From positions 1 to 22,681 of the forward strand of contig JBKHHG010000009.1 of the NCBI GenBank assembly GCA_046539225.1: a stretch of DNA of 22,681 bases, read 5' to 3'. The DNA is from Candidatus Nanohaloarchaea archaeon. Its GTDB lineage: Archaea > Nanohalarchaeota > Nanosalinia > Nanosalinales > Nanosalinaceae. Below are positions 1-22,427 of this stretch, one piece after another. The number at the start of each line of letters is the position of its first letter. Position 1 is the stretch's first letter. The position numbers were made by a program, and so were the translations under genes. Below the pieces are notes generated by a model, which was not told the DNA's origin, searched no databases, and worked only from the letters and a program-made list of their open reading frames with translations.

Positions 1-342
1 TAAGGTGCTTCTTGGATACACATCCGGCATTATATGGGCTTTAGTTCCTTCGACTTCTACAGCATCGGACGGGACTTCAACCTCTTCCCGGGTCTTGATT
101 AAGTAGTAGTCTCCCGGCTCGAGAGTTAATATGTCTTCCGAACCTTCTTGCAGGACTTTCTCGTTGTCTGGAGTATCTCGGGTATCTTGATGGAGAAAAC
201 CTTCTGAGGTTAACTTGAAGGCATCTCCCAGCCTTACTTCCAGGCCTACTCCTTCTGGATTCTCAAGCTCTCTTTCGGCAAGGCCGTGGATCATTCCGTG
301 TTCTTCACGCATTTCCAGAACTTTCTTGGCGGTAAGGATCAT
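1..342 (-). CDS. Trimeric dUTPase/dCTP deaminase family protein (5' part; runs off window start)
   Basis: Not in the ORF track. Translated by hand from ATG at 342: MILTAKKVLEMREEHGMIHGLAERELENPEGVGLEVRLG...LTLEPGDYYLIKTREEVEVP...DVYPRSTL. Open to position 1; LEPG..YLIKTxEEV and PRSTL (motif 2) are family hallmarks. Confidence 0.8.
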   Translation of the reverse strand, partial: MILTAKKVLEMREEHGMIHGLAERELENPEGVGLEVRLGDAFKLTSEGFLHQDTRDTPDNEKVLQEGSEDILTLEPGDYYLIKTREEVEVPSDAVEVEGTKAHIMPDVYPRSTL

Positions 343-377
343 AAAGATACTTTAGAAGAGAATTTTCATAACTTTAA

Positions 378-890
378 TCAGATTTCAAGGTAATCGCCGG
401 AGTAACCTTCTTCAACTTCCTTAATTCTGTGGAAAACTACCTGATTAAACCTTGCGTTCTCCTTTATTTCCACGCCTTCAGGGTTCTCCACTTTTAATAG
501 ACAGGCGCCTCTGACCGTTGTGCCCGCATCCCAGACTGCGTTTTCGATGCTGCAGCCCATTCTCAGCAGCGAGCTTCTTGGAAATGCGTAGGCCATCAGG
601 TTCTCGGGTATATCGACTTTTTCATTCATTTTCACTTTGTAAGCTCCGGGCTCAAGCTTCCACCAGCCGTAATCATTTCCAGGTTTTCTCTCAGGATTTA
701 ACTTTTCTGAGGCCGGTATTTTTCTTTCGTTGTTCGAAAAGTCCAGCTTTCCTTTTCCACTGTATTCATAAATTTCCCCGGCAGTCAAATCGAATCCCTG
801 TGGAGTCAACTGAGTCTCCAAATCGATGTAGTCCTGGATCAGGCCTTCACTCTCTATCTTTTCCTTGAGTTCGTGCTTGTTCAGAGGCAT
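378..890 (-). CDS. dut: Archaeal-type dUTPase (dUTPase/dCTP deaminase family) with atypical motif 3
   Basis: QLTPQGFDLT, LEPGAYKV, PRSSLLRMG, AVWDAG, ARFNQVVF and C-terminal EGYSGDY match archaeal dUTPases. Motif 3 reads WDAGTTVRG instead of WDAGYxGRG. Confidence 0.8.
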   Translation of the reverse strand: MPLNKHELKEKIESEGLIQDYIDLETQLTPQGFDLTAGEIYEYSGKGKLDFSNNERKIPASEKLNPERKPGNDYGWWKLEPGAYKVKMNEKVDIPENLMAYAFPRSSLLRMGCSIENAVWDAGTTVRGACLLKVENPEGVEIKENARFNQVVFHRIKEVEEGYSGDYLEI

Positions 891-951
891 AAATATTGAT
901 GGTGTTACATTGATAAAAAATTAGACCTGTTAACCTTTGTGTGAATCTTTA

Positions 952-2259
952 ATGGAAAGAACTTACACCGATAAGATAACTGAAGAAGATGACGGCGAAA
1001 AATTTACTGTGGCAGGCTGGGCCCACGAGATCAGGGATCTGGGAGGAATAACATTTGTAGTTCTCAGGGACAGAAAAGGCCAGATCCAGCTAACCTTCAA
1101 GGAAGACAGTAATGAAGAACTCTTCGAAAAGGCCCAGTACGTAGGGAAAGAAGACGTGATCAAGGCCTCAGGAATAGTTCAGGCCTCGGATCAGGCGCCG
1201 GGCGACAGAGAGATGCATCCGGATTCCCTGGAGATAGTGGGCGAGGCAGAATCACCTCTCCCGATGGACGTATCCAAGAACATTGACTCCGATCTCTCTA
1301 CCCGGTTAGACAACAGGTTCATGGATCTGAGGAGGCCTGAGAAGCACGCAGTATTCTCTCTGAGAGGCAAGATGCTTGAATCCATGGAGGAATGGTTCGC
1401 GGACAACAACTATATCAAAATCAATACACCGACTATCGCAAAGATGGGGGCGGAAGGAGGGGCAGAACTTTTCCCTGTAGTCTACTACGGAGATGAGGCC
1501 TTTCTAAGCCAGAGCCCGCAGCTCTACAAGCAAATGCTGATGGCAGCAGGCTTCGACAAAGTATATGAGACAGGTAAGGCCTTCAGGGCCGAGGAGTTCG
1601 CTACTTCGCGCCATGTTTCAGAGATCACGATGTTTGACGTCGAGTTAGCGTTTATAGAGGATCAGCACGACGTAATGGATGTGCTTGAAGACTCGCTGAC
1701 CTATACTCTTGAACAGCTGCAGAGCAAGGCCGCCGAAGAGCTGAACGAGTTAGGCGTCGATCTCGAGGTTCCAGAGGAGGACTTCCCGAGGATCAAGTTT
1801 GAGAAAGCCAGGGAAATCCTCGAGGAGGAATACGATCATGTTCCGGAAGACCCTGAGGATCTCGATACGAAAGGGGAGAAACTTCTCGGCGAGTACTTCG
1901 AGGAGAAAGGCCATCCCGCCTTCTTTGTCATCGGGTATCCCGGCGAAAAGTTTTACTACATGGAGGCCCGGGAAGGCGACGAATACCAGTCCCGCCGCTT
2001 TGACTTGATCTACAAAGGCCTCGAGTTGGCGTCAGGAGGGCAGAGAGAGCACGACCTTGAACGACTTGAGGCAGGGATGAAGAGGGACGGAGTCGACCCT
2101 GAAGACGTATCCTTCTACCTTGAATCATTCAAGTTCGGGATGCCGCCGCACGGAGGCTACGGATTAGGCCTCGACAGACTGGTCAGAAAGATCGCGGGCC
2201 TTGAAAACGTGAAGGAAGCTATACTGTTCCCGAGGGATCCAAACCGGCTGACCCCATAA
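952..2259 (+). CDS. aspS: Aspartate--tRNA(Asp/Asn) ligase, archaeal non-discriminating type
   Basis: OB-fold [21 protein letters not shown], motif 2 [11 protein letters not shown]...FRAEE...RH, motif 3 [15 protein letters not shown], terminal [14 protein letters not shown] at 952 preferred over TTG at 937. Confidence 0.96.
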
Positions 2260-2338
2260 TGAGGCCTGGTTTGAAGGCCTGCAGGATTTCCGGGTTTCCA
2301 AGTGTTTTTTATTCTAACACTTTACTTATTTTGTTAGA

Positions 2339-4864
2339 ATGAGTGATCAGGAAGCAGTGACGGAGGCGCAGGATTTCGGTGCGGATACGGAGATTAACAA
2401 GGTTACGTGTAAAGGTTTCAAGTCTTTCCAGAGGAAGACTGCTGTGCCTTTCTATGAAGGCCTGACCGCGATTGTTGGGGAGAACGGCTCGGGGAAGTCG
2501 AATATTCTGGATGCGTTGAGCTTTGTGTTTGGTAGGAGGTCTTCTCAGTTGAGAGCGGAGAAGATGACTCAGCTGATCTTTAACGGCGGTGAGGACGGTG
2601 AGCCCTCTGATTTTGCAAAGGTCACGGTCTATCTTGATAACTCTTCCGGTATCTTTGACGAGTTTCTTGATGAGGATGAGGAGGCTGAGGAGGTTACGGT
2701 CGGGCGGAAGATCACCCAGGCCGGGAGCTCGATGTACAAGTTTCAGGGCACTAACTGCAAGAAAAAGAAGATTGCGGATATCTCGAGGAAGGCCAATATT
2801 GACCCTAAAGGCTACCATTTTGTCCGTCAGGGCAAAGTGACGGAGATAGTTGAGCAGAGCGATACCGAGCGGAGAGAAGTGGTGGATGATCTTTCGGGCA
2901 TCTCGGAGTTCGATGAGAAGAAGGAGGAAGCTGTAGAGGATCTGGAGGAGGTGGAGGAGAAGCTGAGGGAGCAGGAGATCAAGCTTGATCAGAAGAAGGC
3001 CCACCTCAATAAGCTGAAGGAGGAGAAGGAGATTGCCTTGAAGTACCGGGAGCTGGAGAAGCGGAAGAGAAAGCTTGAGGCCTCGAAGCTTGAGGTGAGG
3101 AAGAGAGCCATCGCTAACAGGCTTGCAAACATTAATACTGATGTGTCAGACAGCCGCGAGCGCCTGGAAGAGCTGGAGGAAGAGCTGGAGGAGATCGATC
3201 AGGAGATAGAGGAGAAGCAGGACAGGATAGAGGAAATCGATGAGAAGCAGTCGCAGGGTAATACTGATGTTCAGCACCTTGAAAACAGGATTGAGAAGAA
3301 GAAAGGCCAGATCGAGAACAAGAGGGAACGAGTAAAAGACCTCGAGGACCAGATCGAGGACCTCAAGAAGATGAGCTCCCGGGGCTCCAAGAACAAGGCT
3401 GTGAATGCGGTGTTAGGCCTTGACTGGGATGGGGTCCATGGAAGCTTTCAGGACTTGATCTCGGCGGATGAGAAGTATGCTGTGGCGATCGAGACCGCGG
3501 CAGGAAGCCATATGGATGATGTGGTTGTCGAGGACCGAGATGTGGCTTCAAAGGCCATCGACTATCTGAAGAGGGAGAGTATTGGTAGGGCGAGGATGCT
3601 TCCGCTTGACAAGATCAAGGATCGGAACAGGAGCGCGAAGTCGAAGATGGCTTTGAAGAAGAAAGGAGTGATAGGCTACGCCGGCGACCTTGTAAACTAC
3701 AGCTCAGATTATGAAAAGGCTGTCAACTACGTCTTCTCCGACACCGTTATCGCGGAAGACCTCGACTCAGTCAAGGATATCGATGGAATCAGGGCAGTAA
3801 CTCTTGACGGCGATGTTATGAGCAGAGGCGGCGCGATGAGCGGTGGAAAGAAGAAAAAGAGGCACGGCAACAAGAAGAACCTGTCGAAAAGCCTTGATCC
3901 CGAAGAAAAGAAGAAAGAGAAAGAGGAGGTCGAGGAAGAGATCGAAGGCCTCCAGAAAGACATTGCAGAGCTTAAAAAGATGAAGAAGAGGAAGGAAGAG
4001 GAAGAAGAGACGGATGAAGAACTTCTTGAGGAGAAAAAACAGATTAGAGATGAGTTGAAGGATCTGCGTTCGGATAGACAGGATCTTTACAGCGAGCAGC
4101 AGAAGCTGGAGACGAAGATCGACGAGGTCGGCAGCAAAAAGGCCAATTTCAAGGCCGAGCTGGAGAATATTAAAGATGATCTTGAGGAGTACGAGTTCGA
4201 TGAGGAGGAGCTTGTAGGCCTTGACTCATCGCCGGAAGACCTGAAAAGGAAGAAGTCAAAGGTTGTGAAGAAGATTAACTCGATGGGGCCTGTGAATATG
4301 CGGGCTATCAACGAGTACAAGGAGAAGAAAGAGGAATACGACGAGTTCAAGGAGAAGGTCTCCGAGGTTCGGCAGGAGAAGCTTGAGATCGAGGATTTGA
4401 TAGAGGAGATAGAGTCGAAGAAACGGGAGAGGTTTATGGAGGTCTTCAACCAGATCAACGGGAGCTTCCAGGAGATCTTCCAGAAGCTTTTCGGCGGTGG
4501 AAACAGCGAGCTCGTCCTGGAAGACGATGACATCGAGAAAGGCCTTAAGATCCGCGCAGCCCCTCCAGACAAAGACCCGCATATAATCCAGGCCTTATCG
4601 GGAGGAGAGAAGACTATGACAGCTATCGCGTTTGTGTTCGCTATACTGGAGTACGAGGAGTCTCCTTTCTACATTATGGATGAGATTGACGCTGCTCTGG
4701 ATGATTCAAACTCGAAGAAGCTGTCAGAGCTGCTTAAAGATTACGCGGAGGAAAACCAGTTTATCGTCATCAGCCACAACGATATCACGGTGAGGCACGC
4801 GGAAAGAGCCTACGGTGTCTCCCTGAGGAACGGGAGGTCGAAGATAAGAAGTATAGAGCTCTGA
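2339..4864 (+). CDS. smc: Chromosome segregation protein SMC (short, 841 aa)
   Basis: GFKSF, Walker A GENGSGKSN, Q-loop VRQG, coiled coils, hinge (GVHG...AIETAAG...GRARMLPLDKI...VTLDGD..GGAMSGG), LGPVN-like MGPVNMRAI, signature LSGGEK, Walker B/D-loop MDEIDAALD, H-loop ISH. Confidence 0.96.
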   Translation: MSDQEAVTEAQDFGADTEINKVTCKGFKSFQRKTAVPFYEGLTAIVGENGSGKSNILDALSFVFGRRSSQLRAEKMTQLIFNGGEDGEPSDFAKVTVYLDNSSGIFDEFLDEDEEAEEVTVGRKITQAGSSMYKFQGTNCKKKKIADISRKANIDPKGYHFVRQGKVTEIVEQSDTERREVVDDLSGISEFDEKKEEAVEDLEEVEEKLREQEIKLDQKKAHLNKLKEEKEIALKYRELEKRKRKLEASKLEVRKRAIANRLANINTDVSDSRERLEELEEELEEIDQEIEEKQDRIEEIDEKQSQGNTDVQHLENRIEKKKGQIENKRERVKDLEDQIEDLKKMSSRGSKNKAVNAVLGLDWDGVHGSFQDLISADEKYAVAIETAAGSHMDDVVVEDRDVASKAIDYLKRESIGRARMLPLDKIKDRNRSAKSKMALKKKGVIGYAGDLVNYSSDYEKAVNYVFSDTVIAEDLDSVKDIDGIRAVTLDGDVMSRGGAMSGGKKKKRHGNKKNLSKSLDPEEKKKEKEEVEEEIEGLQKDIAELKKMKKRKEEEEETDEELLEEKKQIRDELKDLRSDRQDLYSEQQKLETKIDEVGSKKANFKAELENIKDDLEEYEFDEEELVGLDSSPEDLKRKKSKVVKKINSMGPVNMRAINEYKEKKEEYDEFKEKVSEVRQEKLEIEDLIEEIESKKRERFMEVFNQINGSFQEIFQKLFGGGNSELVLEDDDIEKGLKIRAAPPDKDPHIIQALSGGEKTMTAIAFVFAILEYEESPFYIMDEIDAALDDSNSKKLSELLKDYAEENQFIVISHNDITVRHAERAYGVSLRNGRSKIRSIEL

Positions 4865-4933
4865 ATTAAAGGATAAAAAAGGCCTTACATAAACTTCTTT
4901 CAGGGGGAAGGGATTTCGAGATGGTAAACGACA

Positions 4934-5620
4934 ATGGAAGAACACCAAGTTGAAATGATAGCGGAGCAGCCCTGGGAGGAGACCCTGGAGTTCTTGACGG
5001 CCGACATGCCTCCGCAGGAGATAGATATAAGTGTTCTTGCGGACCGATACAAGAAGTATATTGACGAGATGCAGGAGTACGACCTTTCAGTACCTGCGAA
5101 AGCGGTCAGGATCTGCGCCGCACTTTTGAACATGAAGGCCATGGCACTCTACGAAACTGAAGAACAGACACAGGAAGAAGAGATGGAGCACCCTATGGAC
5201 TTCGAAGAAGAGGAAGACGAGATAGAGCTCGAGATAGGGCCTGAACTCGATATGCCTGTGAAAAATAGGCCTCAACGAAGAATGAGGTTCGAAGAACTGA
5301 AAGAGGCCTTGAACGATGCACTGGAAGTGAAAGAACAGCGAGAGGAACGCCAGGAGAGAAGGATGGAGATAGATGAGGCCTTTGAAATGGATGAAGAAGA
5401 TCTAACGGATAAACTGGACTCTTTGATGGACTCGATCGTTTCTTTCGTCGGGCGAGACGGGGAAAAAGTAGAGTTCGAGTCCTTGCTGGAGCAGCAGGAC
5501 CGAGAGGAGAAGATTGAAAAGTTCAAGCATGTTCTGCATCTTGAAAACGATGAACAGGTAAGACTAATACAGGAAGAGTTTTTGGGCGACTTACATGTCC
5601 AGCCGGAGGAGGTGAACTGA
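4934..5620 (+). CDS. scpA: Segregation/condensation protein A (kleisin)
   Basis: Directly after smc; N-terminal MPPQEIDISVLADRY...AALLNMKA, acidic linker, C-terminal winged helix F..VLHL...V.LIQEEFLGDL. Confidence 0.88.
   Translation: MEEHQVEMIAEQPWEETLEFLTADMPPQEIDISVLADRYKKYIDEMQEYDLSVPAKAVRICAALLNMKAMALYETEEQTQEEEMEHPMDFEEEEDEIELEIGPELDMPVKNRPQRRMRFEELKEALNDALEVKEQREERQERRMEIDEAFEMDEEDLTDKLDSLMDSIVSFVGRDGEKVEFESLLEQQDREEKIEKFKHVLHLENDEQVRLIQEEFLGDLHVQPEEVN
5608..5615 (+). promoter_or_regulatory. Shine-Dalgarno GGAGGTGA for scpB
   Basis: GGAGGTGA ends 5 nt before the TTG at 5621, supporting that start. Confidence 0.7.
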
Positions 5621-6124
5621 TTGGAGGATAAAAAAGCAAAGCTCGAGGCCGCTCTTTTCCTCGCTGAAGAACCGCTCGAAAGGAAAGAAGTTGCGGATGT
5701 TTTGAACCTTGGAAGCATCGGCTACGTCGACATGCTGATAGAAGAGTTCGAGGAAATGCTTGAAGAAGAGCATAGAGGCCTTGAACTGATACAGACAGAG
5801 GAAGGATACGAGCTGAAGGTTAAAAAGGATCATTTAGATGAGGTTGCGCATCTCGCGCCTCACCAGGATTTAAATTCGGGTCAGCTCCGGACCTTATCGG
5901 TTATAGCCTATAATGCGCCTGTTGAGCAGAAGCGTATTGTAGAGGTGCGGGGTAACAGGGCCTACCAGCATATAAAGGAGCTTGTGTCCCGGGGATTCGT
6001 TTCAAAGGAGAAGGATGGCAGGACAGCCACGCTCGACGTTACAGACCATTTCCTGGACTACTTCGAGATAGAGTCGCTCGAAGAGTTCAAAGAGGGCAAG
6101 GATACCGAGACCGAGATGCTGTAG
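5621..6124 (+). CDS. scpB: SMC-Scp complex subunit ScpB (kite)
   Basis: LEAALFLAEEPL, GLEL...GYEL, LRTLSVIAYNAPV...IVEVRG, T..FLDYF.IESLEE; abuts scpA; TTG start with SD. Confidence 0.93.
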   Translation: MEDKKAKLEAALFLAEEPLERKEVADVLNLGSIGYVDMLIEEFEEMLEEEHRGLELIQTEEGYELKVKKDHLDEVAHLAPHQDLNSGQLRTLSVIAYNAPVEQKRIVEVRGNRAYQHIKELVSRGFVSKEKDGRTATLDVTDHFLDYFEIESLEEFKEGKDTETEML

Positions 6125-6165
6125 ACTCGAGTCTTTTTAGTCTTCCCGGGTTTTAACTTACTGTA

Positions 6166-8052
6166 ATGGAGATCACCAGTCTTGACCTTTCGATACTTGA
6201 GGAAGAGTTCTCGAAGCTTGAGGACGGGCATGTTCAGAAGGTTTACCAGAGAGGCCAGGAGCTGACAATAGAGGTATATGTGCCGGGAGATGAGAAGAAG
6301 CGGGTGGTGATTGGTACGGACAAGGCCTTTATCTCGAAGTACAAACGTGACAATCCTATGAAGCCTCCAGGTTTCTGCATGGAGCTTAGAAAGCATCTGG
6401 GCAAGGTTGACAGTATCACGCAGAAAGGATTTGACCGGGTGCTTGTAATTGAAAGCGGCGACACCAAGCTGATCTGCGAGCTCTTCGGCAAAGGCAACTA
6501 TATACTGACAAAGGAAGGCAAGATTATCGGAGCCTTGAGAGAAGAGGAATGGGTTGACCGGGAGATCAGGGTAGGCCTTGAGTACGAGTTCCCTGAACCG
6601 GCGGACGACCCACGCGGAAAGAACTATATAGAGATGCTTGAAGGCGGTGAAGTAGTGCGTCGAATCGCTTCAGACCTGTCGCTCGGCGGCACGTACGCCG
6701 AGGAGATCTGCACGAGACTCGGCATCGAAAAAGACAGGCCTGTAGAAGATCTTTCAATGGAAGAAAGGCAGAGACTTGAAGAAGAGATCCAGAACTTTCT
6801 GAACCCGGAGCCGAGGCCTGTGCTCTACACGGAAAACGGTTTCCCCGAGAGAGCAGCGCCTTTCCCACTCCAAAACTATGAGAAATATGAAAAAGAAGAG
6901 TTTGAAAGTTTTTCCGAGGCCCTGGACGAGTACTACTACAGGAAGAAGCAGAAGAAAGAGGAGAGAAAGAAAAAGGAGAAGTACAGGGAGGAACTGGAAG
7001 GCCTGAAGCAGAAGAAACAGCAGCAGGAGAGAAAGATTCAAGGCCTAAAGAAATCTTCCAGGCAGAACAGGAGAAAGGCTGAACTGATCTACGAGAACTA
7101 TCAGGAGCTTGAAAAAGTTAAAAAAGCTCTGGAGACCGGTGTGGAACAGTATGGATGGAATAAAACCCGGGAGACGTTGGAAGAGGCTGATATGGAGGAG
7201 GCCTCGAAGATTAAGACGTTGAATGAGCAGAACGGGTTTTTCAGTTATCAGCTTGAGGAGGATTCTGTGAAAATCTTTCTTTTCCAGGATCTGGAGGCCA
7301 CGGCTTCAGGCTACTACGACAAAGCTAAAGATTCGGAGCAGAAGATGGAGAACGCGGAAAAGGCCCTGGAAGCCACCAAAAAAGAGATCGAGGATCTCGG
7401 CGAGGAAGACGTACAGGTTGAAGAGGTTATGGAGGACAAGTCGGAGAAGCGGGGAAAGAAATGGTTTGAGAAGTACCGGTGGTTTTACTCCAGCGATGGC
7501 TTCCTTGTTGTGGTAGGTAGGGATGCTCAGACCAATGAGATGCTTGTAAAGAAGCATATGGAAGACACGGATCTCTATCTTCACGCAGACTTTGACGGCG
7601 CCCCCAGTGTCGTGGTGAAGGATGGGCAGGATGCGCCGGAGGAGACCCTGAAGCAGGCGGCGAAAGCGGCTGTAACATTTACAAAGGCCTGGAAGGCGGG
7701 TATAGGAGCGGCGGATGTCTACTACGTCGAGCCAGAACAGGTGACGAAAGACCCTGAATCAGGAGAGTATCTTTCAAAAGGCGCTTTCGTTATCAGAGGA
7801 GAGCGAGAATACTTCAGGAATATCAAGATCGATGCCTGTATAGGGCCTTACAAAATAGAGGATTTCTACGTGCCGATGTGCGGGCCTGAAAAAGCAGTAG
7901 AGGAACAGTGCGAGGAGAAGATCAAGTTGAGGCCTGGAAGGGATAAGAAGAGCGAAGTCGCAAAGCAGGTTAACTCCAGGCTGAAAGATTACGATCTTGA
8001 CCTGGACTACACTGTACGTTCGCTTCCACCCGGAAAGTCCGAGACCGTCTAA
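6166..8052 (+). CDS. rqcH: Ribosome quality-control protein RqcH/Rqc2 (NEMF, NFACT family)
   Basis: PPGFCMELRKHL, Q.GFDRV, ELFGKGN, LGGTYAEEIC (HhH), coiled coil, NFACT-R WFEKYRWFYSSDGFLVVVGRDAQTNE..VKK, HADFDGAP, ESGEYLSKGAFVIRGER. Confidence 0.93.
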   Translation: MEITSLDLSILEEEFSKLEDGHVQKVYQRGQELTIEVYVPGDEKKRVVIGTDKAFISKYKRDNPMKPPGFCMELRKHLGKVDSITQKGFDRVLVIESGDTKLICELFGKGNYILTKEGKIIGALREEEWVDREIRVGLEYEFPEPADDPRGKNYIEMLEGGEVVRRIASDLSLGGTYAEEICTRLGIEKDRPVEDLSMEERQRLEEEIQNFLNPEPRPVLYTENGFPERAAPFPLQNYEKYEKEEFESFSEALDEYYYRKKQKKEERKKKEKYREELEGLKQKKQQQERKIQGLKKSSRQNRRKAELIYENYQELEKVKKALETGVEQYGWNKTRETLEEADMEEASKIKTLNEQNGFFSYQLEEDSVKIFLFQDLEATASGYYDKAKDSEQKMENAEKALEATKKEIEDLGEEDVQVEEVMEDKSEKRGKKWFEKYRWFYSSDGFLVVVGRDAQTNEMLVKKHMEDTDLYLHADFDGAPSVVVKDGQDAPEETLKQAAKAAVTFTKAWKAGIGAADVYYVEPEQVTKDPESGEYLSKGAFVIRGEREYFRNIKIDACIGPYKIEDFYVPMCGPEKAVEEQCEEKIKLRPGRDKKSEVAKQVNSRLKDYDLDLDYTVRSLPPGKSETV

Positions 8053-8936: not shown

Positions 8937-9043
8937 ACCATTCAAAGACTCACGCCGGGTTAAAATAATACCGCCTCATTCCACCAGGAACTTTACAGGT
9001 CTGTTACCCAAAATAATCAATAGGCCTGAAATAAAAAAATGTT

Positions 9044-9976: not shown

Positions 9977-10539
9977 TAGTTATCCTCTTCTTTTAGATGC
10001 TGCTTCATACTGCTTCTCCTGTCTTTATCCGGCACGTTTATCTCCATCGTGTATTTTCCATCTTTCCTGGACCGTAGATCCACAGAAAACTCTTTAGCAT
10101 CAAAGAAGTAAGGATTGAACTTTGTCATGAGGCCTGAGTAGACTTCTTCCTCCATTCCTCTTGCTGCTTTTCTTGATCCGGAGCGGAAAGGCCTTGAAAA
10201 TTTCTGGGAGGCCTCTTTCAAATCTTTTCCTGCTTCTGACGGTTTTAATGCGTTTTTCCCGGCTTCAAGGGTTTTTCTGCCGGCTTCCGAGAAATCTTTT
10301 GATCCTCCAGAGTCTTTCTCCACTTTTTTCTTTTTGAGGGAGGCCGTCTCTACAGTCCTCTTTTTGATGTCTTCATCTGTGTCTTCCTCTCTGGGTCTCC
10401 AGGTCTCGAACTCTTCTATAGACTCCTGGTCGACTTCGTTTTCGAGGCCTTCCCTGACCTGTTGGGCGAACTCGGCTACTTCCTCTATACTCCCCTTTTT
10501 TCTGAGGCCTGCGTTTGTTTCCTCGATTTCTTCAGCCAT
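9976..10539 (-). CDS. Conserved haloarchaeal-type hypothetical protein (DUF5828-like)
   Basis: G....G...EV.E, E.WRP.E.....D...RT.E.AS and EE.VY...M....PYFFD....S patterns recalled from the DUF5828 family; no search run. Confidence 0.6.
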   Translation of the reverse strand: MAEEIEETNAGLRKKGSIEEVAEFAQQVREGLENEVDQESIEEFETWRPREEDTDEDIKKRTVETASLKKKKVEKDSGGSKDFSEAGRKTLEAGKNALKPSEAGKDLKEASQKFSRPFRSGSRKAARGMEEEVYSGLMTKFNPYFFDAKEFSVDLRSRKDGKYTMEINVPDKDRRSSMKQHLKEEDN

Positions 10540-11747: not shown

Positions 11748-11772
11748 AACAGTTGAGGCCTGTTCTTGAATT

Positions 11773-12174
11773 ATGAGCCACAGAGAGAAAATCCTTTCAG
11801 CACTTGAAGAATCTCCGATGAGTTTCTCCGAGCTCAAAGAGAAGACAGGCCTTGCCAACGGAGTAATACAGCACCATATCAACGCCTCAGAGAAGATAAA
11901 GAAAGAAAACGGCGCCCTGATCTTAAAAGGAAAATGCGACAGCTGCGATCTAAGAGAAGAATGCTGCAACGACTGTATAATCCTCAAGATCAACGATGAG
12001 AGAAAAAGAGATATACTTAAGCTGAAAGACGAAGGCCTTACACAGTCAGAGATAGCAGAAAAACTTGAGCTCTCAAGGCCTACCGTGAACCACCACTTCC
12101 AGGATTTAAGGCTTAACGGACTGATAAAAGACGGAGAAGTAAGAGAAAATATTTCAGAGGCCTTAAAGGAGTGA
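11773..12174 (+). CDS. Double winged-helix transcriptional regulator with central Cys cluster
   Basis: HTH1 MSFSELKEKTGLANGVIQHHI; CDSCDLREECCNDC; HTH2 LTQSEIAEKLELSRPTVNHHFQDLRLNGLI (ArsR-like). Confidence 0.8.
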   Translation: MSHREKILSALEESPMSFSELKEKTGLANGVIQHHINASEKIKKENGALILKGKCDSCDLREECCNDCIILKINDERKRDILKLKDEGLTQSEIAEKLELSRPTVNHHFQDLRLNGLIKDGEVRENISEALKE

Positions 12175-12471
12175 AACCTTTTTCATCTCGGTTAAGAACT
12201 TTTCCACATCTTCCTCATTATTGTAGAGGTGCATAGACGCCCTTAAAGTCGAGTCAAACTTTTTTCCCTTGAACCATGGATGTACGCAGTGCTGGCCCGA
12301 CCTCACCTTTACTCCTCTCCGGTTTAAAATCTCTGAGGCCTCATTACAGCTCATAGACCCGGGTATTACAGATACTATGCCTGCTCCCTGATTCAAAACT
12401 TTTACATCGAGTTTTTCAAGGCCTGAAACCATTTTATCCGTCAGTTGTTTTTCATGACGGTAAATTCTCTC
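12163..12471 (-). pseudogene. sufS: 3' remnant of cysteine desulfurase (SufS/CsdA type)
   Basis: Frame reads ERIYRHEKQLTDKMVSGLEKL...GIVS...RGVKVRSGQHCVHP...LRASMHLYNNEEDVEKF (catalytic RxGxHC). The N-terminal ~300 aa, including the PLP lysine, are missing, and the frame hits a TAG upstream. Confidence 0.85.
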
Positions 12472-15498: not shown

Positions 15499-15552
15499 AC
15501 GTAAAAGACAGGCCTCAGCTATCAACTAAAGGCCTGCTCAAATCCCCTTCCT

Positions 15553-15562: not shown

Positions 15563-15582
15563 TGGAAGAGTGAATGTGAAAT

Positions 15583-16659: not shown

Positions 16660-16665
16660 TTATTG

Positions 16666-16673
16666 TCACCTCC
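16666..16673 (-). promoter_or_regulatory. Shine-Dalgarno GGAGGTGA of the putative major subunit gene
   Basis: Minus strand reads CCGGAGGTGACAATAAATG, with ATG at 16659. Confidence 0.75.
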
Positions 16674-16972
16674 GGTCGTTTTCCGATACTTTATTTTTGA
16701 AGGTTTTTGGAGAAGAATATGAAGGATAGAAAATGATAGCTGTATTTTTCAAAGGCCTGAGGCCTTTTACTACTATTTCTACCTCCCCCGCCACGAGACA
16801 CATATTTTACTGCGAGCCACCGACTTTTTTATTGGTTTCCATAAGTTAAACTATGTCTAAGCTTTATTTATTGGCGGTAGTAAAAGCTCTTTAAACCTCT
16901 GTGTAGAGTTTTGAAGGCCTTAAACCCTGGTAAAAGGTTTTTAACTTTTGAAACCTGATTATCTACTGTTTA

Positions 16973-17452
16973 ATGGCTGATCAGCTTCCTGAAAAAGTTT
17001 CAGACCGCAGAAAAAGTCCTGGACAGGATATTGTCAGAGTAGATGGCTGGGATAGCCTGGCGGAGATTCTGCGGGGAGGCCTTGAAGGAGAAAGTAGTTT
17101 TCACGGTTCTTTTGAAAGCCTAGAGGAGGTTAAAGTATTTGTAGCTGGTTCAAGGGATTACAGGGATCGGAACAGCTATTTTCTTGATTCAAAGGATTTC
17201 ATTGAGCAGAAAGAGGAAGGTTTTTTCCGCGAGGCTTACTGCCCGTCATGTCTGGTCGATGAAGTTGTCAAGGCCGACGAACTTGAGGATTCGGGGCTTC
17301 AGGAGGCTCGAATGGATTTTTTCTATGATCGCAGCCGGGTTAAGTCTTTCAGGCCTGGTTTTGAGAAGTATGTAGAGTGGAAAAGTTTGAACTGTCTTGA
17401 GCATCCTGAACACGGTATCGTAATGAGGCGGAAGGAGTACGTTGAAAGATAG
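16973..17452 (+). CDS. Hypothetical protein with possible Zn-binding residues
   Basis: YCPSC and C..HPEH motifs; co-oriented 35 nt before hel308; TTTTAA box upstream. Confidence 0.65.
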   Translation: MADQLPEKVSDRRKSPGQDIVRVDGWDSLAEILRGGLEGESSFHGSFESLEEVKVFVAGSRDYRDRNSYFLDSKDFIEQKEEGFFREAYCPSCLVDEVVKADELEDSGLQEARMDFFYDRSRVKSFRPGFEKYVEWKSLNCLEHPEHGIVMRRKEYVER

Positions 17453-17487
17453 CTGAATGATAAAAGAATTCCATTTAATTGTCTGGT

Positions 17488-19740
17488 GTGAAAGTTTCGG
17501 ACCTGAGTATACCTGAAGGCCTGAAGCAGAAGTACATCGAGGAAGGTATTACCGAGTTGAATCCTCCTCAGAGACAGGCAGTGGAGAAAGGTTTGATGGA
17601 TGGCGAGGATTTGATTGTGGCGTCTCCTACAGCTTCCGGCAAGACTCTTATCGCAGAGTTAGCGGTGGCGAAGGAAGCTGTCGAAAAGGGGAAGACCGCG
17701 ATCTACATCGTTCCTTTGAAGGCCTTAGCTTCTGAAAAGTACGAGGATTTTTCCGAGAGATACGAGAACTTGAACGTGAAGATGAGCGTAGGAAACAGCG
17801 ATGATGCGGGCGAGTACCTCGATTCAGCGGATATAGTGATTGTGACGAGCGAGAAGATGGACTCCATGTTAAGGCATAACCCGAGCTGGATCCACGACAT
17901 AGGCCTGGTCGTGGTGGACGAAATACATCTTCTCACCTCCGAAAACAGGGGTCCAACCCTTGAAGTCACTTTAACCCGGTTAAGGGAATTACTGGATTTC
18001 CAGCTTTTAGGCCTCTCCGCAACTATCTCCAACGCTTCAGAGATGGCGGACTGGCTGGAGGCCTCGCTTGTAAAATCGGATTACAGGCCTGTAGAACTGA
18101 AGCACGGAGTTTACTGGAACAGCGAGGTAGAGTTTTACTCTGATGAAGATGTAGAGTCAAAATCCGAACTGGAGACCCCTGAGGGCTGGAGCACCGGCGC
18201 AGACGTCAAGAAGAGAGAGGAAGAGGCCTCAGAGTCAGAAAAAGAGGAGATGGGCTACGGCGAGGACCGCGGCACAGAAAACATACTGAGAGACACCTTG
18301 GAGATGGATAAACAGGCCATCACCTTCTGCAACTCGAGAAAAGGCTCTGAAAAAGAGTCAGACAGAGCCGCAAAGATAGTGGAGGACGATCTTTCCCGGG
18401 ATGAGAAAAAAAAGCTCGAGGAGTACTCTGAAGAGATACTGAACGCCCTGGGATCCCCAACTTCCCAGTGCAAAAGATTAGCGAAAAACGTGAAGAATGG
18501 TGCGGCTTTTCACCACGCAGGCCTCGTCAGTCAACAGCGAAAGGCCGTGGAAGAGGCCTTCAAGAAAGGATTGATCCGTAATATTTCTGCTACTCCGACT
18601 CTGGCTGCAGGGGTGAATCTTCCGGCTTTTAGAGTTGTTATACGGGATTTAAAGCGTTATACCGGGAACGGAATGGATTTTATTCCTGTTCTGGAGTATG
18701 AACAGATGACTGGTCGTGCTGGGAGGCCTAGCTACGATGACAGAGGTGAGGCGATCAGTATTGCTAAACAGCCGGGGATGAAGCAGGATATTCTTGAAAG
18801 GTATATTCTCGGCGAGGCGGAGAGAATTCAGTCCAAGTTGAATGTGGAACCGGTTCTCAGGATGCATACCTTGGCTTTGATCGCGTCAAAGTTTTGCTCG
18901 AACATGGATGATCTTCTTGACTTCTACAAAGAGACTTTTTACGCCCACCAGTTCGGGGATATGATGTCGGTCAGGGAGAAGATTGAGAGAGTTGTTGACA
19001 CGCTTGAAAGTTATGGATTCGTTGACAAGGAAGAGTTTGAAGCCACGGAGATCGGCAGAAAGGTCAGCGATCTCTACATCGACCCTGACTCCGCGCACCT
19101 CATTATTCAGGGCCTTGAAAAGGCCTCTGGAACCGAGACACGAGATATCTCCTACCTGTTTCTGCTTTCAAGGACTTCGGAGATCCGGTCGCTTAACGTG
19201 AAGGACAAGGAGTGGAACGAGTACGAGAAAATGTTGATGGACGCAGAGCCCTACCTTTTGGAAGATATTCCGCAGGAGTGGGATGTGGAATACGAGACGT
19301 TCATGGATTCGATGAAGACCGCGATGATGATGAACGCCTGGATCAGCGAGATGGACGAAGAGGAGATCATGAACGAGTTCGGAACCGCTCCAGGAGGCAT
19401 TCGAGCAAAGATTCAGAACGCTGACTGGCTTCTCTACTCGAGCAAGGAACTGGCGAGAATGAAAGGCCTTGAAGTCGACAACGAGCTTGAAAAACTTCGG
19501 ATCCGCCTCAAACATGGCATCGACGAAGAACTTTTAGGCCTGGTAAAATACGATCAGATCGGCAGAGTAAGAGCCAGAAAACTCTACGATCACGGCATCA
19601 GGTCGAAGAAAGACATTAAACAGGTGAACTTCGAGAAACTGAAGAAACTGATCGGGAAGAAGACCGCAGGCCTCCTCAAAGAACAGGTTGGAGAGGAAAA
19701 CTACTTTGACCGGGAAAACATTATGGACTACTTCAGCTAA
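17488..19740 (+). CDS. hel308: ATP-dependent DNA helicase Hel308/Hjm (Ski2-like SF2)
   Basis: ELNPPQ, SPTASGKT, PLKALASEK, DEIH, LSAT, HHAGL, TPTLAAGVNLP, QMTGRAGRP, AT.IG..VS.LYIDP, C-terminal HhH IGRVRARKLY. Start at GTG 17488 or TTG 17479. Confidence 0.94.
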   Translation: MKVSDLSIPEGLKQKYIEEGITELNPPQRQAVEKGLMDGEDLIVASPTASGKTLIAELAVAKEAVEKGKTAIYIVPLKALASEKYEDFSERYENLNVKMSVGNSDDAGEYLDSADIVIVTSEKMDSMLRHNPSWIHDIGLVVVDEIHLLTSENRGPTLEVTLTRLRELLDFQLLGLSATISNASEMADWLEASLVKSDYRPVELKHGVYWNSEVEFYSDEDVESKSELETPEGWSTGADVKKREEEASESEKEEMGYGEDRGTENILRDTLEMDKQAITFCNSRKGSEKESDRAAKIVEDDLSRDEKKKLEEYSEEILNALGSPTSQCKRLAKNVKNGAAFHHAGLVSQQRKAVEEAFKKGLIRNISATPTLAAGVNLPAFRVVIRDLKRYTGNGMDFIPVLEYEQMTGRAGRPSYDDRGEAISIAKQPGMKQDILERYILGEAERIQSKLNVEPVLRMHTLALIASKFCSNMDDLLDFYKETFYAHQFGDMMSVREKIERVVDTLESYGFVDKEEFEATEIGRKVSDLYIDPDSAHLIIQGLEKASGTETRDISYLFLLSRTSEIRSLNVKDKEWNEYEKMLMDAEPYLLEDIPQEWDVEYETFMDSMKTAMMMNAWISEMDEEEIMNEFGTAPGGIRAKIQNADWLLYSSKELARMKGLEVDNELEKLRIRLKHGIDEELLGLVKYDQIGRVRARKLYDHGIRSKKDIKQVNFEKLKKLIGKKTAGLLKEQVGEENYFDRENIMDYFS

Positions 19741-20129
19741 TCATCTGACACCAGGAAGTATTTATCGCGTTCATCTTCGACGCAGCCCCATCGAGCATTC
19801 AGATGTTTATCGGCCTGAAACCCTGTATCACTCGGTATAGAGATAGCGACACCATAGTAGTTAGAGTAGGGAACAAGAAGGTCAGAATCGGAGAAAAGAG
19901 CCGCAAACTTTTTTAACGCCGTATCTTCGTGATCGACGCCCGGATCAAGAACATGGAGATCAGCCGAGCCAGAAACATCTCCAGGCATAGAGTAAAGCTC
20001 TACATCATCGTACTCATCAATTCCAAGGCCTTCAACCAGCCGCGAATCTATATCCACACTGCCAGAAGAATAAACATCTTCCTCTACATCCGGATTATCT
20101 TCAGCCGGTCCTGAATCCGCCTGTGCCAT
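19737..20129 (-). CDS. Hypothetical acidic protein
   Basis: 130-aa open frame, very Asp/Glu-rich; TTTAA box about 24 nt upstream. Confidence 0.6.
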   Translation of the reverse strand: MAQADSGPAEDNPDVEEDVYSSGSVDIDSRLVEGLGIDEYDDVELYSMPGDVSGSADLHVLDPGVDHEDTALKKFAALFSDSDLLVPYSNYYGVAISIPSDTGFQADKHLNARWGCVEDERDKYFLVSDD

Positions 20130-20171
20130 ACTGAAAACTTAGCAAAGCCGCCTTAAATCTTTAAGGTTGCC

Positions 20172-20699
20172 TCAACTTCCAACTACCAGCCTACCCGAAC
20201 CTTCACCATCGTCAAAATACCTCAAGTAGGCCCCACCAGGCTCAACGCCCTCATCAAGCAACTCCACAACTTCTCTGCTGACTTTACCGTTTTCCCGGTC
20301 AAGATACTGATTCTCATAGCCTTCTTCAAGATAATCAACCCTCAAGACCGCAACGCCATCCATATCATTTACATCGCTTAACAGACCATCCTCTCTAATC
20401 CTTAAAGGAATAACCTCGTCCAGATCGCCGCTGAAAAACTGTCCAATGTAATGCTCAAGTATTTCGGCGGATTCTTCAGGGCCAGCATAAATGCTTCGAT
20501 CAGAAGCCTCCGACAACCGATTCAAACGCTTTTCATCAGGCCTAAAAACACTTTCAGTCTCCATAAGGCCTTCAGCGTTAACGTAATCAATGCTTAAATC
20601 TGGATCAACTTTTACAGTAGAAGCAGAGGCCTCTAACGGCTCTGGAGACTCTCCAGAGACTCCTTCGTTTGCTGCTTCTTTCTGTTGGGCCTGAGACAC
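20172..20699 (-). CDS. Hypothetical acidic protein
   Basis: 175-aa open frame (GTG start) with genome-typical composition; AT-rich promoter-like region upstream. Confidence 0.6.
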   Translation of the reverse strand: MSQAQQKEAANEGVSGESPEPLEASASTVKVDPDLSIDYVNAEGLMETESVFRPDEKRLNRLSEASDRSIYAGPEESAEILEHYIGQFFSGDLDEVIPLRIREDGLLSDVNDMDGVAVLRVDYLEEGYENQYLDRENGKVSREVVELLDEGVEPGGAYLRYFDDGEGSGRLVVGS

Positions 20700-20806
20700 G
20701 TATTAACTGGGAAAAACTTTTTTAAAAACTTTGCCCGAAAAAAGGCCTTCAATAAAGTAAAACAGGAATGAAAAAATATTTCAGGGCCTCTTAATTAGGT
20801 ATAAAC

Positions 20807-21610
20807 TCAGTAAATTACTTCTTCAAGTTTATCAAGTATTTTTCCAGGTTCTTTTCGCTGGAAGACGTTTCTTCCAACAGCTAAACCGTTGCCTCCTGCC
20901 GATAAAGAGGCCTCTACGTCTTGTAGAAACTTTTCGTCGCTCCTCTTTGATCCACCACTCATGACAAACTTCATATCTCCTGTGTTACGCAGCACTTTTT
21001 CTGTTTCTTTTTTTGATCCTGGATACTTGCATTTTACAACGTCAGCCCCAAGTTCAAGGCCTAATCTTGCTGCATAGGCTATTACATCGGTGTCTTTCTG
21101 TCCGCTGTAGTCAGGGTTTTGATCTATGCCGTGGCCGCGGGGATAGGCCCACATAACTACAGGAACATCGTATTTCCGGGCTTTTTCCTGTACCTGCCTG
21201 AATTCTTTCCACATTTTGTCTTCAAAGTCGCTTCCGGCATAGATTGTATATCCTACTGCTTCTGCTCCAAGTTCTTCGACTGCGTACTCCACGCTGCACT
21301 GCTTGGGGCTGTAGTAGTCCGTTCTGCTTCCAAGACCGGAGTTGCCGTTGAGTTTGACAAGTAAGGGTGCTTTCTCAAGTTGTGAGGCCTTTTCGTACTG
21401 TTTCTCCCATCTCCGGTAGGATTCTGCCAGGCCTTTCTGCAGGGCGAGGGCGGTGACTGCGTCGTGGGTTGCTGTCTCAAAGATATGCTCCGGGTCTGCG
21501 CTCTCCGGGTTAGGATCAAAGTTTGTTGGGCCGTGTTCAAGGCCGTGATCATACGCAAGGATCAGAAGGTTCCCGTCCCGGAAGATCGGGGAGTCAGGAT
21601 GTTCTCTCAT
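20807..21610 (-). CDS. fba: Class I (DhnA/archaeal-type) fructose-bisphosphate aldolase
   Basis: LAYDHGLEHGP, VKLNG, VMWAYPRG, YAARLGLELGADVVK (Schiff-base Lys), VMSGG, GLAVGRNVFQ. Confidence 0.93.
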   Translation of the reverse strand: MREHPDSPIFRDGNLLILAYDHGLEHGPTNFDPNPESADPEHIFETATHDAVTALALQKGLAESYRRWEKQYEKASQLEKAPLLVKLNGNSGLGSRTDYYSPKQCSVEYAVEELGAEAVGYTIYAGSDFEDKMWKEFRQVQEKARKYDVPVVMWAYPRGHGIDQNPDYSGQKDTDVIAYAARLGLELGADVVKCKYPGSKKETEKVLRNTGDMKFVMSGGSKRSDEKFLQDVEASLSAGGNGLAVGRNVFQRKEPGKILDKLEEVIY

Positions 21611-21632
21611 AACAGGTGTTTAGTCTCCCCGG

Positions 21633-21667
21633 TTTAAATTTTGATCTTCCTGAGATAGTTTTTTAAC
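21633..21667. promoter_or_regulatory. Divergent TATA-like boxes for fba and the TM2 gene
   Basis: TTTAAA at 21633-21638 is about 22 nt from the fba ATG; TTTTTTAAC ending near 21667 is about 22 nt from ATG 21689. Spacing typical of leaderless archaeal transcripts. Confidence 0.55.
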
Positions 21668-21688
21668 TTCGGAGACCCTGCTTAAGTT

Positions 21689-22018
21689 ATGGCAGAAGAT
21701 GAGCCAGGACCTGACGAACAGTACTGCAGCAGCTGCGGAGAGATAATCAAAAAAGAAGCGGAAATATGCCCGGAATGCGGGGTAAGACAAAGCTCCGGTT
21801 CTGGAAGCGGAAGTAAAGACCGTCTAACAGCTGGAATCTTCGCTCTGCTTCTCGGAAGCTTTGGAGCCCACAAGTTCTACCTTGGGAACACAGGCCTCGG
21901 AATACTTTACCTGTGCTTCTTCTGGACAGGGATTCCAGGCCTAATAGGGTTTATAGAAGGCCTAATTTACCTTACAAAGAGCGATGAAGAGTTCAATGCA
22001 AAGTACGTCGAGAACTGA
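21689..22018 (+). CDS. Zinc-ribbon plus TM2 (NINE) domain protein
   Basis: YCSSCG...ICPECG, then AGIFALLLGSFGAHKFYLG..GLGILYLCFFWTGIP..IGFIEG. Confidence 0.9.
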   Translation: MAEDEPGPDEQYCSSCGEIIKKEAEICPECGVRQSSGSGSGSKDRLTAGIFALLLGSFGAHKFYLGNTGLGILYLCFFWTGIPGLIGFIEGLIYLTKSDEEFNAKYVEN

Positions 22019-22427
22019 AGAGTTTAGGAAAGGCCTGAAAGAGACACGGAGACACCTGCTTTCCCACCACAGAGACGAAGAGCTTTACCGGTGTTACAAA
22101 GTCAGAGGAGAGCATCTCTGCTCAAGATGCACAGGGATCTACCCGGGAATACTCGCAGGCCTCTACCTCATTTTTTCCTCAAACCCGCTCTCCATCGCCG
22201 CAGTCGCGTTATCCGGGGTGCCGACCCTAATTGAAAAATTCTTCACCGGCGTCAAGAACTTCAAAGGCTACAACACAGTCAGAACAGGTTCAGGCCTGCT
22301 GCTCGGAGCCGGCTACATCAACGGCCTCTACCTTTTGATCCAAAACCCTTTCAACCCTGAGATCCTGTCCACAGGCCTTTTCTACATTACAGCAGGCCTC
22401 CTGCTTTTATACCTCGAGAAAAAATAG
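21996..22427 (+). CDS. DUF2085-like membrane protein
   Basis: H......RCY.....LCSRCTGIYPG followed by TM segments and N..R..SG.L.G; start uncertain. Confidence 0.7.
   Translation: MQSTSRTEEFRKGLKETRRHLLSHHRDEELYRCYKVRGEHLCSRCTGIYPGILAGLYLIFSSNPLSIAAVALSGVPTLIEKFFTGVKNFKGYNTVRTGSGLLLGAGYINGLYLLIQNPFNPEILSTGLFYITAGLLLLYLEKK

Follow-up and report, generated by a model that had tools for sequence, protein, structure and literature searches.

AGGCCT in the Window and Across the Genome

The window analyzed here is a 22,681-nt stretch of DNA from a small halophilic symbiotic archaeon of the Nanohaloarchaeota. It carries genes including aspS, smc and scpA, and dispersed through it are copies of the palindrome AGGCCT (Table 1). 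An exact-match count gave exactly 118 sites (5.2 per kb), in agreement with the hand count of about 118 in the original prediction, against a mean of 7.1 and a maximum of 15 in 100 dinucleotide shuffles of the window. Genome-wide, the observed/expected ratio by base composition was 20.2, close to the 20-fold first estimated and above the at least 15-fold that defines a highly iterated palindrome (HIP). According to our own gene calls, 105 of the 118 sites are coding, in all three codon registers (59 xxA-GGC-CTx, 28 xAG-GCC-Txx and 18 AGG-CCT) and in genes of both strands (68 plus, 37 minus), as had been proposed. The other 13 lie outside called genes, two of them (10630 and 15510) within longer start choices. 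All of the spacer sites named earlier are outside called genes, as is the tandem pair, whose 7-bp gap is uncommon across the genome (3 of 2,812 successive gaps). Between aspS and smc, 13 bp separate the two sites, and pairs so spaced are under-represented.

Table 1. Coordinates of AGGCCT sites and associated genes (window positions unless another contig is given)
Feature	Coordinates	Strand	Comment
118 dispersed exact AGGCCT palindromes	242..22399	.	sample of what is seen genome-wide rather than a local element
Two intergenic sites (2262, 2275)	2262..2280	.	between aspS and smc
Intergenic site	4880..4885	.	between smc and scpA
Intergenic site	9022..9027	.	
Coding site	10130..10135	.	one transition (10134) in run X2 contig
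Intergenic site	11756..11761	.	
Intergenic site	15530..15535	.	
Tandem pair, 7 bp apart (16753/16760)	16753..16765	.	
Intergenic site	20743..20748	.	
Context genes with coding sites	952..8052	+	aspartyl-tRNA synthetase, SMC, ScpA, ScpB, NFACT/Rqc2
AddB-like and AddA-like pair (candidate reader)	G000:C2:28886-34077		outside window

The HIP-like character proposed for the word holds genome-wide, with 2,850 copies in 606,781 bases (4.7 per kb), in all registers and in spacers, on all 38 contigs (1.7–5.8 per kb). AGGCCT is the commonest hexamer of the genome by 2.5-fold, and other NGGCCN words, which had been described as visibly rarer, number 68–438 against 5,700 for AGGCCT when both strands are counted. 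In codon-matched places it was favored 37-fold over words with at least two mismatches, and its flanks had only a weak preference for A at +3/+4 (1.13–1.18). The enriched motif is the 6-mer AGGCCT and not a GGCC core. Within-gene synonymous codon shuffles left 87, 176 and 178 copies where 444, 930 and 1,160 were observed, and spacers genome-wide held 302 sites compared to 9.0 in 50 base shuffles. Codon bias is thus insufficient to explain the enrichment, as originally argued, since the latter survives synonymous shuffling and is present in intergenic DNA. Contigs from two runs agree with the window to about 99.5% or more where they span the sites, so these are not assembly junctions.

Saturation of Codon-Permitted Places

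AGGCCT is realized in about 80% of the places where codons permit it, the odds of realization being 58-, 29- and 41-fold those of the background for the three registers, and dipeptide use is shifted toward pairs that permit the word. Genes found only in genome G005 were as a whole little lower (1,281 of 1,791 places realized) than core genes (775 of 1,034), and a defense island of G005 carried 14 sites in 15 kb where about 60 were expected. The word is therefore over-represented in core genes and scarce in recently acquired DNA, as is characteristic of Chi sequences. G005 also favors AGGCCC/GGGCCT 9-fold, versus 48-fold for the full AGGCCT, indicating that word specificity differs between lineages.

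Protection, Spacing and Turnover of Sites

We found that AGGCCT sites are conserved between genomes beyond codon constraint. In the very close pair L275/L287, which has about 37 sites, changes were seen at 0 of 73 and 2 of 74 in-site third codon positions, where 10.0 and 11.5 were expected. When ten pairs were pooled, comprising this one and nine more distant, all six positions had changed less than expected (observed/expected 6/24.7, 7/20.5, 3/11.2, 14/37.8, 7/30.6 and 8/11.5), one locus being used twice in the pool and the distant pairs including convergence. Genus-level orthologue comparisons are saturated (four-fold identity 0.32–0.36) and thus uninformative on conservation. One of the 40 strain differences listed (of 477) touches a site, that at 10130, where 1.2 were expected, too few to be informative.

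AGGCCT sites are mutually exclusive over distances up to about 30 bp. Places 6–19 bp apart were both realized in 54 of 187 pairs in G000 (expected fraction 0.62) and in 59 of 211 pairs in G005 (0.54), and control palindromes had no short-spacing gap. An exclusion of this size fits any bound protein. In orthologue alignments the sites pair gap-free with non-site hexamers, which indicates that they arise by substitution and not by insertion, and decay products of AGGCCT were seen in a sister genome. Each copy is favored over its one-letter variants, a pattern from which we infer that AGGCCT is read by a sequence-specific protein; a protein-binding site or a self tag would be compatible with both the site protection and the 30-bp exclusion.

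Distribution Across the Nanohaloarchaeota

The enrichment is a nanohaloarchaeal trait; 12 of 70 Nanohaloarchaeota genomes, in four genera, are AGGCCT-rich. It is patchy on an AspRS tree and stable across whole genera (three of three genomes rich in each of g7 and g19), and rich, decaying and unaffected sister lineages exist inside single genera. Neither the non-rich loci nor the 680 kb of genome G014 that were examined yielded another hyper-abundant word in its place. Completeness is 82% for G000, 68–82% across G000, G001 and G002, and 92% for G003; G005 is whole, and the single-contig rich genomes include G005 and G010. The original prediction knew of no description in this lineage, and our literature search, which covered few subscription journals, likewise turned up no account of the word being enriched in archaea. 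The trait is an archaeal HIP variant for which no methylase was found.

An AddAB-Type Enzyme and Its Relation to Mre11

An AddB-like gene is present in 29 of 50 family genomes, including all 12 rich ones, and in every rich genome it stands beside an AddA-like gene, so that an AddAB-type enzyme is encoded, as a Chi signal would require. Within genus g2 the AddB-like gene was found only in the two rich genomes of six, and AddA was likewise absent from the other four, which are 77–89% complete. The N-terminal 430 residues of the AddB-like protein match an ADDB_N cluster in predicted structure (TM 0.77 over 427 residues), and the partner protein matches AddA/AdnB/RecB models and structures. A search for sequence matches of the AddB-like protein to solved AddB gave none; its nearly invariant T46 and W73 may correspond to T44 and W73 of B. 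subtilis. In Bacillus the Chi reader is described as the inactive helicase domain of AddB (PMC3321194).

Canonical Mre11 was found in 18 of the 50 family genomes and in none of the 12 rich ones, and only 4 of the 50 had both Mre11 and the AddB-like gene. AddAB and Mre11 are nearly mutually exclusive across the family. NurA was found in none of three single-contig rich genomes and in two of two Mre11-bearing ones. The PF04152 profile gave no match anywhere, controls included, and is thus uninformative. No report of Mre11 loss in nanohaloarchaea was found in a literature search that covered few subscription journals.

The AddAB association was found after about ten candidates had failed, draws on four genera, and has several observations against it. 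G003 has kept its own AddAB while its sites decayed, 17 of 38 non-rich family genomes have the AddB-like gene (13 of them without Mre11), and the rich genomes are split among four separate places in the AddB tree. Q203, N191 and L180 are common to the rich AddBs, but a clade-level permutation was not significant (14% of 715 clade sets did as well), and the same residues occur in several homologues that have few site-friendly dipeptides.

Candidate Mechanisms

An AddAB-type enzyme, standing where Mre11-Rad50-NurA genes were not found in rich lineages, is the most likely reader. We tentatively propose that AGGCCT is a palindromic Chi-like signal with this enzyme as its reader, spread by repair bias or selection, a reading that was absent from the original prediction and that we hold as possible. 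Such an enzyme would degrade DNA from a break until it met AGGCCT, in the way that bacterial AddAB responds to Chi. Where a chromosome copy lacked the site, it would be resected past that point and refilled from a site-bearing copy, while a copy with AGGCCT would keep it through repair; this bias could turn near-sites into sites and shield all six positions of those already present, and degradation would go further in foreign DNA lacking the word. The palindrome would act from both directions and so double the push, which would explain why AGGCCT alone reaches saturation, and a second site inside the enzyme footprint of about 30 bp would add little. Somewhat doubtful is the fuller scenario, in which some nanohaloarchaea swapped Mre11-Rad50-NurA resection for a bacterial-type AddAB, AddB reads AGGCCT as Chi, and a two-way repair bias saturated the genome and reshaped its proteins.

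Exact palindromes suit dimeric binding proteins, and AGGCCT may alternatively be the site of an abundant dimeric nucleoid or chromosome-organizing protein, with weak per-site selection keeping the chromosome covered. The footprint-sized exclusion, the protection at all positions and a slight dip in site density between positions -40 and -21 relative to start codons, to 3.6 and 3.1 per kb from about 5–6 further upstream, would agree with this, and a nucleoid-type role has been proposed for HIP1 (PMC5861425). However, ribosomal protein genes have no shortage of sites (54 of 68 and 52 of 73 places realized), of the small DNA-binding genes tested (the SWIM protein and the 89-residue protein, from a minority of the 413 G005-only genes) none followed the trait, and there is no convincing 10–100 kb period in G005, whose 52-kb peak was reached by 8–47% of gene-block shuffles in a simpler test than that of PMC5861425; we regard a nucleoid protein as rather unlikely. 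A self tag for uptake or cell-to-cell transfer, raised by preferential uptake or recombination as with uptake sequences and as lately suggested for HIP1, seems unlikely. The dipeptide shift resembles that of uptake sequences. HIP1 raises transformation (10.1101/2024.09.10.611283), a correlation of HIP1 with genes for type IV secretion has been described (PMC13756078), and giant VirB4-like proteins are present in nanohaloarchaea (PMC10266531). Against this, the cyanobacterial uptake effect needs methylation, for which no cognate methylase was found here, and ComEC was not found in any of the five single-contig genomes (three rich, two not), in a search whose control matched in 10 of 14 cases, none of them archaea.

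The original prediction had considered a methylation- or repair-driven process on a GGCC core. Sites would then be created with the nanohaloarchaeon's own methylase, through either a repair ratchet directed by methylation (Elhai's model) or patch repair of the Vsr/MIG type, and the ratchet would likewise protect all AGGCCT positions. AGGCCT is a methylase target elsewhere (M.AboORF2079P of an Alcanivorax borkumensis type II R-M system; PMC12128166), and alternate HIPs come with a matching methylase (PMC4390886). Against this, the motif is the 6-mer, and in three Pfam families of methyltransferases there was none whose presence follows the trait: of the seven rich genomes among 41 searched, PF00145 was found in one, PF01555 over cut-off in one and PF02086 in none, and none of the three was found in G005 or G010. 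The search for a GGCC or AGGCCT methyltransferase that had been suggested found no cognate enzyme of known fold in G000 or in these two single-contig genomes. A motif scan of the whole G005 chromosome turned up just two methylases, one type I-like and one large and fused, the second of which is matched by a counterpart in non-rich G014, and SAM synthetase was not found in the incomplete G000, G001 and G002. No donor word is depleted and no one-letter neighbor shows the draining that patch repair would require (in G000, AGGTCT/AGACCT stood at 0.98 and AAGCCT/AGGCTT at 1.63 of baseline), and all positions are protected, where a Vsr/MIG signature would have one drained donor and one protected position. 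Nor does the HhH-GPD glycosylase found in G005 follow the trait, and we consider this route very unlikely. Most improbable is a reader from outside, either a host haloarchaeal enzyme arriving by a cell bridge or a resident virus. In that case no symbiont gene would track the trait. The patchiness of the trait would suit it, and passage of methylases between symbiont and host has been proposed (PMC11001535), but the trait is stable over whole genera, probably for longer than strain-specific host systems usually last. Among the at least 120 clustered-site viral loci listed, mostly chance clusters and tandem repeats, none was nanohaloarchaeal by protein match, save two single generic hits. No RNA was listed as a holder of the word.

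Several genes were tried as the driver and rejected. C5, N4/N6 and D12 methylases and the HhH-GPD glycosylase do not track the trait; the SWIM protein (7 of 41 genomes) is missing in G022, which is rich, and present in G017 and G018, which are not; the 89-residue protein is in none of two rich and all of three non-rich genomes. Nre (35 of 41), uracil glycosylase (5 of 5), SAM synthetase (51 of 70), UvrB (5 of 50, including rich G004) and ComEC were also set aside. A driver gene may have been missed, since genomes were incomplete and our gene caller simple: candidate subtraction used G000, G003, G005 and no more than 680 of the 957 kb of G014. The Pfam scan covered 234 of the 272 candidate proteins of G005 in one set and 238 of the 413 in another, skipping membrane, lectin-like, very long and plainly metabolic ones.

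Comparison With Known Systems

The closest parallel is HIP1, GCGATCGC, with its alternate HIPs, including CAGGCCTG of Synechococcus PCC 6312 (PMC4390886; PMC5861425; PMC13756078). Both are short palindromes that exceed composition 20-fold, occupy every frame as well as spacers, are more conserved than codon constraint would demand, have a patchy distribution in their clade and spread by substitution, and one alternate HIP has a six-letter core identical to AGGCCT. In contrast to HIP1, AGGCCT is an archaeal 6-mer with nearly free flanks at 4.7 per kb, has no cognate methylase that we could find and no clear kilobase periodicity of the 10–90 kb kind, and displays a 30-bp mutual exclusion of which the parts of the HIP1 literature consulted give no description. 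In Synechococcus PCC 7002 the HIP1 effect is reported to remain after addAB deletion (10.1101/2024.09.10.611283), which counts against the Chi-like reading.

Chi of RecBCD/AddAB, GCTGGTGG in E. coli and AGCGG in B. subtilis (PMC3321194; 10.1101/2020.08.13.249359), is likewise a short, over-represented, lineage-specific word that is scarce in recently acquired DNA, and the AddB-like protein, with its predicted ADDB_N-like fold, accompanies an AddA-like helicase-nuclease wherever AGGCCT is rich. Known Chi sequences are non-palindromic and strand-polarized, whereas AGGCCT is archaeal, its own reverse complement and without polarity, and occurs once per 0.2 kb as opposed to about once per 5 kb for E. 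coli Chi; recognition by AddAB is here a proposal. AGGCCT is also the target of StuI. With type II restriction-modification targets it shares the identical hexamer and sharp specificity, yet it is hugely enriched and not avoided, and no type II methylase was found in the rich single-contig genomes. DNA uptake sequences are known from Neisseria and Pasteurellaceae. Methylated RAATTY has been cited for Campylobacter jejuni (10.1101/2024.09.10.611283). Their very high density, effect on protein sequence and possible role as a self tag resemble what we observed, but neither ComEC nor a methylase was found here.

How a restriction-type palindrome comes to fill a genome is a question posed by HIP1 for three decades, with methylation central to most models. 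The same signature now appears in an archaeon with a 1-Mb genome, where no matching methylase was found, and one concrete candidate enzyme can be offered for the six-letter word. If the AddAB reading is correct, AGGCCT would be the first archaeal and the first palindromic Chi, and would represent a methylase-free route to a highly iterated palindrome. The near exclusion of AddAB and Mre11 is a separate, testable finding on archaeal break repair.

Results

Abundance of AGGCCT and the force acting on it

The window, which is contig C9 of its genome, contains 118 exact AGGCCT sites, compared with 7.1 in dinucleotide shuffles. In the genome to which it belongs (G000; 607 kb, 82% complete), whose AspRS groups among Nanohaloarchaeota, AGGCCT is the commonest hexamer, with 2,850 sites spread over all 38 contigs, and Markov scans indicated the 6-mer itself and no longer word. 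Using gene calls from our own caller (723 genes, 90% coding), we found 4.65 sites per kb within genes and 5.3 per kb outside them, where 302 sites occur versus 9.0 after shuffling. Synonymous shuffles account for at most one fifth of the sites in every register. Sites occupy 441 of 515 protein-permitted R-P places, 910 of 1,206 E/K/Q-A-x places and 1,159 of 1,457 x-G-L places, where codon use elsewhere predicts 48, 116 and 128, respectively. In the spacers of G000 and G005, a single-contig rich genome, site density peaks between convergent genes at about 10 per kb (21 and 57 sites), compared with 5.5-6.3 per kb in other spacers, and one of the longest gaps between sites in G005 overlaps the large rRNA gene. 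CTAG is strongly avoided in G000, with 133 copies genome-wide where 980 are expected and 4 copies in the window; no CTAG methylase was found there.

Between the closest pair of rich loci (L275 and L287; third-position divergence 10%), 0 of 73 and 2 of 74 third positions within sites had changed, while 10.0 and 11.5 changes were expected from the same codons outside sites. On the step to a decayed locus (L049) there were 16 such changes versus 21 expected. Pooling ten rich pairs revealed protection at all six positions, weakest at the last; thus, the force is active and covers the whole word. The low site turnover counts against mere replenishment. Single-position patch repair was ruled out, as none of the one-letter neighbours of AGGCCT is drained; because such repair shifts words within one position only, it would be expected to yield a few-fold gain rather than a 37-fold one. 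In G003, a sister genome with decayed sites, transition neighbours are in 3- to 3.6-fold excess, as expected where a lineage has lost the force.

The pressure also alters protein sequence. Relative to expectation, the dipeptides R-P, G-L and A-S stand at 1.66, 1.45 and 1.40 in G000 versus 0.82, 0.99 and 1.00 in the non-rich G014, with no rise of the reversed dipeptides in G000, and site-permitting places are twice as common (17.4 versus 8.6 per 1,000 residues). Residues at G000 sites are less conserved than those at control palindromes. We also compared permitting with reversed contexts in 57 loci: their ratio lay between 1.2 and 2.1 for the 14 loci whose excess was at least 13-fold, and mostly between 0.6 and 1.3 for the others.

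Sites exclude one another at short range. In each of G000 and G005, site pairs 6-9 bp apart reach 0.17-0.18 of baseline density, rising to 0.4-0.7 for separations of 10-29 bp and to 0.85-1.0 past 30 bp, compared with 1.1-1.3 at 6-19 bp for fifteen control palindromes. A neighbour at 6-12 bp lowers site realisation from 0.86 to 0.47, costing about half of the log-odds advantage.

Distribution among relatives

With a threshold of at least 1.8 sites per kb, 12 of 70 genomes of the phylum are rich, all within one family: 4 of 5 in genus g1, 3 of 3 in g7, 3 of 3 in g19 and 2 of 6 in g2. The remaining g1 genome, G003, has intermediate density. Rich loci, which sit in at least four places of a quick AspRS tree, include Nanohaloarchaea archaeon SG9 (L053) and Ca. 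Nanosalina sp. VS9-1 (L073); J07AB56 (L058) is not rich, and GGCC is depleted in NHA25 (L081; 8 versus 54). Neither the non-rich loci nor 680 kb of G014 yielded a substitute word of 5-8 letters at a comparable level. Three further relatives depleted in AGGCCT or GGCC, G020 (L001), G024 (L002) and G021, carry 73, 97 and 55 sites per genome; 340-residue C5 methylases with similar scores occur in G020 and G024, and none in G021. A record titled Colwellia polaris (L078) is likely mislabelled, as its AspRS is 75% identical to that of the window and falls inside the nanohaloarchaeal tree. Two viral contigs (L360 and L373) carry dispersed sites about 10-fold over expectation (30 and 17 in 10 kb); their proteins had no match among four nanohaloarchaeal proteomes.

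Features with coordinates
Location	Strand	Feature	Remarks
Window, 2339-6124		smc-scpA-scpB operon	SMC of 841 residues, shorter than the typical roughly 1,180
Window, 12163-12432	-	89-residue frame	Possibly a gene remnant; seems similar to a cysteine desulfurase C-terminus
G003:C5:4274-5551 (L146)		Second AddB-like piece of G003	Shares 82% identity with the G014 one; G045, G054 and G069 have near-identical copies, so this type looks mobile, or else the piece is a binning stray

Methylases and end-resection genes

Searches for PF00145, PF01555 and PF02086 found none in G000, G005 or G010, another rich single contig; of the 7 rich genomes in the set of 41 searched, 1, 1 and 0 carried these families. 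Scanned for motifs, the complete G005 chromosome yielded a putative type I-like methylase, encoded within a site-poor island, and a putative fused methylase of 1,236 residues with a counterpart in the non-rich G014. The G000 proteins with SAM motifs resemble housekeeping methylases of RNA and protein.

About ten candidates for a protein recognising AGGCCT, obtained by genome subtraction, failed, and we changed approach and looked for genes missing from rich genomes. A counterpart of the G014 Mre11 was found in 18 of the family's 50 genomes, with none in the 12 rich ones or elsewhere in their genera; NurA occurrence matches it in all 5 genomes tested. In G000, G003, G005 and G014, a UvrD-type helicase-nuclease matching models and structures of AddA, RecB and AdnB adjoins an 835-893-residue PD-(D/E)XK protein. 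The latter appears AddB-like from language-model features (0.95) and from the structure predicted for its N-terminal half (TM 0.77 to an ADDB_N cluster), which we count as one source of evidence; sequence searches against solved structures were blank. Its homologues include proteins of Ca. Nanohalovita haloferacivicina (P0041) and haloarchaea. The gene is present in 29 of 50 family genomes (12 of 12 rich, 17 of 38 others) and, within g2, in exactly the 2 rich genomes, with AddA concordant, a split for which the chance is at best 1 in 15. Fisher tests gave p-values of 5e-4 and below, but they overstate the association because related genomes are not independent; by genus, all 4 rich genera are among the 11 of 21 having an AddB-positive, Mre11-free member, with a chance of about 0.06 by our own arithmetic.

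Discussion

AGGCCT is under a force on the exact word that is symmetric, footprint-limited and lineage-specific, and that operates without a methylase from the three Pfam families examined. A literature search found no report of enrichment of this kind. The word behaves like cyanobacterial HIP as described in the available parts of PMC4390886, PMC5861425 and PMC13756078, but lacks the methylase feature of HIP, and we therefore file it as a HIP variant rather than a member. Methylation as the driver, as the original prediction had proposed among other options, is very improbable. The nanohaloarchaeal methylome in print concerns GDGCHC in Ca. Nanohalococcus, and the main text of PMC10266531 and that of PMC11001535 make no mention of GGCC. 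That the reader is supplied from outside seems very improbable, and a role of AGGCCT as a tag for DNA transfer rather unlikely. Binding by a nucleoid protein is a somewhat better prospect, though still unlikely; the footprint-sized exclusion is compatible with any bound protein and identifies none.

We tentatively favour, while considering it less than probable, an AddAB-type enzyme that may read AGGCCT as a palindromic Chi-like signal. AddB would recognise AGGCCT on the strand that has been unwound, and resection would stop there, as at Chi (PMC3321194); repair off another chromosome copy would then favour the site-bearing allele, and a palindrome would be favoured from either side. The 9-fold excess of AGGCCC/GGGCCT in G005, versus 48-fold for AGGCCT, is near the square-root relation predicted by one-sided recognition, although additive dimer binding predicts much the same. 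Several observations weigh against AddAB: AddB occurs in 13 non-rich genomes without Mre11, and no substitute word was found; sites decayed in G003 although its own AddAB was kept; and the AddBs of rich genomes form no single clade and share no significant diagnostic residue. Chi is by definition non-palindromic and polarised (10.1101/2020.08.13.249359), a polarity that AGGCCT lacks. In a study of PCC 7002 (10.1101/2024.09.10.611283), the HIP1 effect persisted after addAB deletion, and its authors nonetheless describe homologous HIP1 sites as Chi-like.

UvrD-Cas4-like fusions in mesophilic archaea have been remarked on, without a target word in the part consulted (PMC5704561). Wherever the AGGCCT force acts, AddAB is always present and Mre11 was not found. 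Across the 50 family genomes, 4 have both the AddB-like gene and Mre11, 25 AddB only, 14 Mre11 only and 7 neither; the two are nearly mutually exclusive, and the family thus contains two alternative end-resection systems.
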